Source: Escherichia coli (lineage in GTDB: Bacteria; Pseudomonadota; Gammaproteobacteria; Enterobacterales; Enterobacteriaceae). Taken from it: a stretch of DNA of 64,000 nucleotides. The notes under the pieces are model-generated. The model searched no databases, was not told the DNA's origin, and saw nothing but the letters and a program-made list of their open reading frames with translations. Positions 62,085 to 62,130 of this stretch are shown one piece after another; within the stretch, counting starts at the first letter, position 1; each line of letters begins with the position of its first letter. A program made the translations under genes and the position numbers. Location: NCBI RefSeq assembly GCF_030013595.1, contig NZ_CP122768.1; one strand, written 5' to 3'.

Positions 62085-62130
62085 TAAACGATCGATGGTA
62101 ACGATCGATACCTGTTTTATCGATCGTTTT
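62085..62130. promoter_or_regulatory. agn43 phase-variation switch: three GATC Dam sites overlapping the OxyR operator
   Basis: GATC at 62090-62093, 62103-62106 and 62122-62125 within cgatcgatggtaacgatcgatacctgttttatcgatcg, upstream of agn43. Confidence 0.75.

Follow-up and report, generated by a model that had tools for sequence, protein, structure and literature searches.

A probable Dam/OxyR epigenetic switch with three GATC sites ahead of an Ag43/Cah-type autotransporter gene of Escherichia coli

Our analyses support a promoter-proximal Dam/OxyR epigenetic switch ahead of an Ag43/Cah-type autotransporter gene in a stretch of 64,000 nucleotides of Escherichia coli DNA (hereafter the window), a reading that we consider very likely from the sequence anatomy of the region and from its homology with the flu locus of strain K-12. 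A previous sequence-only reading had taken the agn43 upstream region for the known three-GATC Dam/OxyR switch, and this identification agrees with the register of the GATC sites, the -10 block and the OxyR half-sites, all of which match their K-12 counterparts.

Results

The agn43 gene (948 amino acids plus stop) occupies positions 59026..61872 on the minus strand and encodes an Ag43/Cah family autotransporter. The long open reading frame in which it lies (59026..61947, minus strand) holds the signal peptide start MKRHLNTSYRLVWNH at 61872, and the 948 residues are counted from MKRHLNT. The protein scores 1988 bits (cut-off 1200) over positions 1-948 of 948 of NF033177, the NCBIfam equivalog named 'Ag43/Cah family autotransporter adhesin', and the gene is an intact member of the Ag43 family, free of truncation. 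Its best match among solved structures is 7KO9 (residues 52-613), the alpha-domain of UTI89 Ag43, of class C4 (PMC8993888); PDB 7KOH and 4KH3 were also matched. Agn43 is 73% identical to K-12 Flu, which has 1039 amino acids, and the 91-residue difference in length lies in the central part of the passenger, which aligns poorly; unlike in K-12, no yeeR follows the gene. The sequence-only reading had remarked on a shorter (948-aa) passenger, which is true relative to Flu but is no cause for concern, 948 residues being the full length of NF033177. The 'short passenger' is accordingly a normal allelic class; the short-passenger allele Ec042-4803 of EAEC 042 still mediates aggregation and biofilm formation (PMC2808357).

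Upstream of the gene, three GATC sites are located at 62090-62093, 62103-62106 and 62122-62125, all of them within 62085-62130 and 218-253 nt from the agn43 ATG (61872). On the plus strand, which reads ...aaacGATCgatggtaacGATCgatacctgttttatcGATCgtttt... across the switch, the sites start 13 and 19 nt apart, as had been claimed for them, and this order becomes 19 then 13 along the minus strand, in the direction of agn43 transcription. Accordingly numbered on the minus strand, they are GATC-I (62122..62125), whose G at 62125 is the inferred transcription start (+1), GATC-II (62103..62106, +20..+23), at the same offset as in K-12, F719, O157 cah and H8, and GATC-III (62090..62093, +33..+36). GATC occurs 260 times in the whole window, on average once every 246 bp, and forms five triples within 36 bp where a first-order Markov simulation predicts about 1.1, so that clustering alone is unremarkable. 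The four other triples would suit an explanation in which the trio arose by chance and has no regulatory meaning; against it, the exact 13/19 pattern occurs a single time in the window, with 0.02 occurrences expected. Other GATC clusters (at 4979, 22978-23020, 27448, 39230 and 44829) reached only 4-5/10 when scored as OxyR half-sites and were rejected on that basis. The second of these comprises four sites within 46 bp (22978-23023, starting at 22978, 22991, 23008 and 23020), and its OxyR half-site score is only 5/10.

The yeeP-isrC-flu region of MG1655 (NC_000913, about 2071280-2071538) served as the K-12 reference. A MAFFT pairwise alignment opened an artefactual gap of 12 nt within the switch and was discarded in favour of an ungapped comparison anchored on TAATAGAATAAAACGATC, a -10/+1 block identical at 18/18 positions between the window and K-12 flu. 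Alignment to this region, which the earlier reading had proposed as a check, returned the same -10 block and GATC sites at +1, +20 and +33, placed at offsets of 14, 33 and 46 from TAATAGAATA in both sequences. Identity to K-12 amounts to 20/36 over -36..-1 and 25/36 over +1..+36, drops to 17/60 over +37..+96, where the leader is unrelated, and climbs again at the terminator hairpin, the ribosome-binding site and the start codon.

Two promoter elements were read from the minus strand, the -10 hexamer TAGAAT (62131..62136), inside the 18-nt block shared with K-12, and a -35-like hexamer TTGCGT (62154..62159), separated from the former by a 17-nt spacer. The G of GATC-I aligns with position 2071317 of NC_000913, the annotated 5' end of K-12 isrC, and agn43 transcription is said, after the work of Wallecha et al. 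in 2002, to begin at the G of the upstream GATC; on these two grounds +1 was set at 62125. From the sequence and by homology with K-12 we infer a sigma-70 promoter, with the -10 element directly upstream and the start at the G of GATC-I (62125, minus strand). The -35-like hexamer, which differs from the TTGTCC of K-12, matches TTGACA at only 3/6 positions, and for this reason a promoter consensus scan of the region called no site.

Candidate OxyR half-sites were scored against the Toledano consensus ATAGnTnnnAnCTAT, with two half-sites per tetramer (as quoted in PMC2909390 and PMC4856963). Half-site A (ATAGAATAAAACGAT; 62123..62137, -12..+3, minus strand) scores 8/10, overlaps the -10 hexamer and GATC-I, and is identical in K-12; half-site C (ATCGTTACCATCGAT; 62091..62105, +21..+35, minus strand), also at 8/10, carries GATC-II and GATC-III in its two tetrads; taken together, the outer half-sites are identical or near-identical to those of K-12. 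The motifs ATAGAATAAAACGAT (-12..+3) and ATCGTTnnnATCGAT (+21..+35) are common to every agn43 allele examined. Half-site C begins 32 bp after half-site A, and the predicted pair overlaps all three GATC sites. Of its four recognition tetrads, three hold one GATC site each, and the remaining one, a perfect ATAG, overlaps the -10 hexamer. Single half-sites of at least 8/10 number 14 across the 64 kb, against 13.7 predicted by chance. Pairs of such half-sites at a spacing of 22 or 32 bp amount to one, namely A plus C, where 0.005 would be expected, and the coincidence of this pair with the unique 13/19 pattern speaks further against a fortuitous trio. No additional half-site of at least 8/10 lies within 22-33 bp of the predicted operator. 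A spacing of 32 bp is canonical for reduced OxyR, and half-sites of 7-10/10 are functional in the system for which this was described (PMC4856963). The loss of the OxyR half-sites, named beforehand as the observation that would speak against the switch, was not found, both outer half-sites being present at 8/10.

The window and K-12 differ over the segment +5..+17, including the CTAT tetrad of K-12, which is replaced here by AACA. Because of this replacement the window scores only 10/20 in the register of the best contiguous K-12 37-mer (ACGATCAATATCTATTTTATCGATCGTTTATATCGAT, 22-bp half-site spacing), against 14/20 in K-12 itself, and the internal K-12 half-site falls from 6/10 to 2/10. Sequence and homology would suggest an operator made of the outer half-sites, extending over the -10 element, +1 and the three GATC sites, and acting in repression only. 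The weak central half-site and 37-mer, together with the 3/6 match of the -35 hexamer and the absence of a called promoter, could also belong to a switch that is present in sequence but functionally altered, either biased or locked ON through poor OxyR binding or silent through a weak promoter. We consider such an alteration quite unlikely: both outer half-sites are preserved, with the distance between them that has been described as canonical for reduced OxyR, and the conservation of the region, described below, points in the same direction.

The 368-nt regulatory region was recovered at a coverage of at least 80% in 3,445 of 5,426 complete E. coli genomes, the allele of the window being the commonest in the species, and its 86-nt core is 100% identical in E. 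coli strain H8. Metagenome contigs were sampled by a 25-mer located 65 nt downstream of +1, i.e. without selecting on the GATC sites. All three sites, at +1, +20 and +33, were present in 111 of the 118 complete metagenomic copies (94%), and indels changing the spacing among them occurred in none of the 118. Given this conservation, the homology with the K-12 operator and the pairing of the half-sites, a chance origin of the trio is effectively refuted and deserves hardly any credence.

The remaining seven copies each lack one site: GATC-II in five cases, in which it reads AATC, TATC or GACC, GATC-I in one and GATC-III in one. Strain T2, the closest complete genome over 4.5 kb (99.0% identity), has TATC in place of GATC-I. 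The existence of these natural copies indicates that selection on each GATC is not absolute, and by their sequence they appear to be two-site versions of the switch. In a K-12-like copy, likewise, GATC-III has become GATA.

Column-wise diversity averaged 0.047 in an alignment of 117 sequences, which represent a single allele family in which much of the leader is also conserved. In this alignment diversity was 0.011 for the -35 hexamer, 0.007 for half-site A with the -10 element and 0.010 for the 12 GATC positions, and reached 0.22 in the 17-nt promoter spacer (-28..-12, 62137-62153) and 0.24 at +25..+29 (62097-62101), between GATC-II and GATC-III. The latter segment reads TACCA in the window and TACTA, TGCTA, TTATA or TGATA in other copies, and the variable columns of half-site C (+25, +27, +28 and +29) without exception coincide with an N in the OxyR consensus. 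Such a pattern is what would be expected of a promoter and a protein-binding site under constraint, and the two hypervariable segments might tune promoter strength or OxyR affinity. The conservation of the -35 hexamer itself, and the strong conservation of the operator variant in the 117 copies and its presence in about 3,450 complete genomes, argue against a functionally altered switch.

A collection of genome contigs was also scanned. The anchor taken from the leader hairpin gave no match in it, and an 18-mer covering the -10 element and GATC-I gave 14 matches, 12 of which lie in unrelated taxa and were treated as chance. The other two are short contigs of one Collinsella metagenome-assembled genome with agn43 regulatory regions, which probably represent E. 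coli contamination; none of the Escherichia genomes of the collection was matched.

The leader RNA of agn43 corresponds to IsrC (Rfam RF00124, 'IS102'), matched by cmscan at 61891..62127 on the minus strand at E=5.7e-11, with a score of 68.1 bits where the gathering score is 46, and over positions 1-206 of the 206 in the model. As in K-12, the leader is of the IsrC type with a terminator hairpin, but it measures 253 nt before the coding sequence, against 222 nt in K-12, and is unrelated to the K-12 leader from +37 to about +170. The terminator-like hairpin (61904..61931, minus strand), with a 12-bp stem containing eight GC pairs and followed by a U-run, is present in the predicted fold, is conserved with K-12 and sits just before the ribosome-binding site AAGGA (61884..61880, minus strand).

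At the 5' end of the leader, +1..+23 form an 8-bp hairpin in the predicted fold (the leader as a whole has z = -2.6), an 11-bp inverted repeat spans 62100-62128, and the segments of GATC-II and GATC-III pair with each other in the consensus structure of Rfam IS102. These features would favour an explanation in which the CGATCG palindromes are kept mainly as RNA or DNA structure in the 5' end of the leader, serving transcript stability or attenuation, with Dam methylation being incidental. A hairpin, however, could be maintained through compensatory changes, whereas it is the GATC tetranucleotides themselves that are kept; their register is maintained across three otherwise divergent cassettes (19/13 in the K-12 and cah types, 18/13 in the dynamin type described below), and the variable positions are those that the OxyR half-site leaves free as N. 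We regard structure as a very improbable main reason for the conservation of the sites, and such a role could in any case operate alongside the switch instead of taking its place.

The predicted Dam/OxyR switch of the window has close relatives. The cah gene of E. coli O157:H7 and other 'Ag43/Cah family' loci share with it the operator family (GATCGATAAAACAGGTATCGATCG...), the leader and the gene length class; O157 cah differs in a 3-nt patch between GATC-II and GATC-III, TAT there and ACC here, and in carrying ATACAAACACC at -54..-63, where a C10 tract is found here. The Salmonella gtr and opvAB systems are similar in that their OxyR half-sites bear GATC sites, with a GATC pair 13 bp apart in one half-site, and in that the distance between half-sites suits reduced OxyR; in these systems methylation and the binding of OxyR exclude each other (PMC2909390, PMC4856963). 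Unlike agn43, they carry four GATC sites, and their three or four half-sites, located upstream of the promoter, allow OxyR alternative positions from which it activates or represses. A switch of the gtr/opvAB type was rejected here, where only three GATC sites and one operator over -10 and +1 are found. A Dam/Lrp switch of the pap type, with two GATC boxes 102 bp apart in Lrp sites, was likewise rejected; between 61800 and 62400 there is no GATC beyond the three at 62090-62125.

The C10 tract at -54..-63 of the agn43 promoter corresponds to a G10 run on the plus strand (62179-62188), the only run of at least nine G in the window. The same 10-11 nt read ACACAAACACC, ACACAAACCCC, ACACAACCCCC or ACACACCCCCC in other copies, a graded series across genomes which suggests that A-to-C replacement lengthens the tract. 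Once long, C-tracts vary from C9 to C11 (C9 in T2, C10 in O26 RM10386, C10-C11 in metagenomes), a variation in which homopolymer sequencing error is possible, and at least 10 C were present in only 3 of the 117 sampled copies.

As in K-12, the locus lies downstream of a yeeP-like GTPase gene (62244-63117, minus strand), which in the window carries a 1-nt deletion near 62453 (GGGACTGG-GGCATGG, versus GGGACTGGCGGCATGG in strain NDM2). The resulting frameshift splits a 290-aa open reading frame into overlapping frames of 237 and 128 aa, so that the gene is a pseudogene, as is K-12 yeeP. The island comprises DUF4942, cbtA/cbeA, yeeT, radC, antirestriction, DUF932, agn43 and yeeP-like genes, and adjoins the sslE-pppA-gspS2-gspC..M type II secretion locus (window 39001-64000). 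This part of the window matches the glcA/sslE/gsp region and the island and is E. coli-like, at 96-99% identity; over the 25 kb, the best match among 5,426 RefSeq complete E. coli genomes is only 96.4% identical.

Outside the window, an agn43-like cassette was observed ahead of an operon of dynamin-family, RdcB-family and patatin-like phospholipase genes in CFT073 (NZ_CP058222, region 4122230-4122400; 3495-3612 of the locus taken from it), EcN and ST131 (19940-20185 of the locus taken from strain 5506). Like the agn43 cassette, it directly follows the 3' end of yeeP and contains the -35-like TTGCGT, TAATAGAATA and three GATC sites. It differs in the GATC spacing (18/13), in a 37-mer that matches the OxyR consensus at 16/20, in a leader of only about 75 nt, with the operon about 50 nt downstream of the cassette, and in a cargo that includes no autotransporter. 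Of the 5,426 complete E. coli genomes, 1,984 contain this cassette, which in ST131 sits at the place in CP4-44 where K-12 has flu; the dynamin gene of O157 strain 611 comes after cah and has no GATC block of its own. Our literature search found nothing combining dynamin, OxyR and GATC, nor any description of the cassette, which possibly controls an undescribed Dam/OxyR phase-variable operon.

Discussion

In the K-12 model, OxyR on the unmethylated operator gives the OFF state and Dam methylation, by blocking OxyR, gives the ON state (PMC3764049, PMC13337833, PMC4872104). If the start, OxyR binding, methylation states and switching known from K-12 are carried over to the window, an OxyR tetramer would bind the two half-sites spanning -12..+35 when the three GATC sites are unmethylated; so bound, it would cover the -10 element and the transcription start, repress the gene and shield the GATC sites from Dam (OFF). 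Were Dam to methylate them after replication and before OxyR rebinds, OxyR would be excluded and agn43 transcribed (ON), the transcripts crossing the 253-nt IsrC-like leader and its terminator hairpin ahead of the coding sequence. Either state would be inherited, and the hemimethylated state that follows replication would offer the occasion for switching. Both dam and oxyR are core genes of E. coli.

Both allelic groups of agn43 have been described as having GATC sites, three in number and similarly spaced (PMC2808357, with reference to van der Woude and Henderson 2008), and phase variation was inferred in PMC2808357 from the three sites only. An oxyR mutant of EC958 shows a 121-fold increase in agn43 transcription and an oxyR mutant of CFT073 derepresses the co-transcribed IrmA (Moriel 2016, PMC4807369), in alleles that may be of either operator type. 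A literature search found no experiment on OxyR binding or phase variation with the cah-type operator variant. The finding made from the window is correct and already known, since the Ag43 Dam/OxyR switch is a textbook system, both allelic groups are covered in PMC2808357 and the operator occurs in thousands of genomes.

More tentatively, and with a rather low probability in our estimation, the cah-type operator may work unlike the K-12 model, and the cassette may be a portable phase-variation module. The operator has only the outer half-sites, 32 bp apart, without the central tetrad, which makes allele-specific OxyR occupancy, switching bias and oxidation sensitivity possible. Allele-specific tuning could further reside in the promoter spacer and in +25..+29, and perhaps in the C-tract at -54..-63. 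As for portability, the same cassette, placed behind yeeP in CP4-44-like islands, may drive either Ag43 or the dynamin/RdcB/patatin operon.

Conclusions

The added value of our analysis is comparative and modest, and lies in identifying the parts of the operator that the different alleles conserve and in the observation that the same cassette fronts another operon in many E. coli. For the island itself, the results mainly confirm the annotation, with an Ag43/Cah adhesin that is intact and accompanied by the full set of sequence elements required for phase variation by Dam and OxyR. Accordingly, studies of expression, methylome and aggregation in this strain should expect mixed populations of ON and OFF cells.
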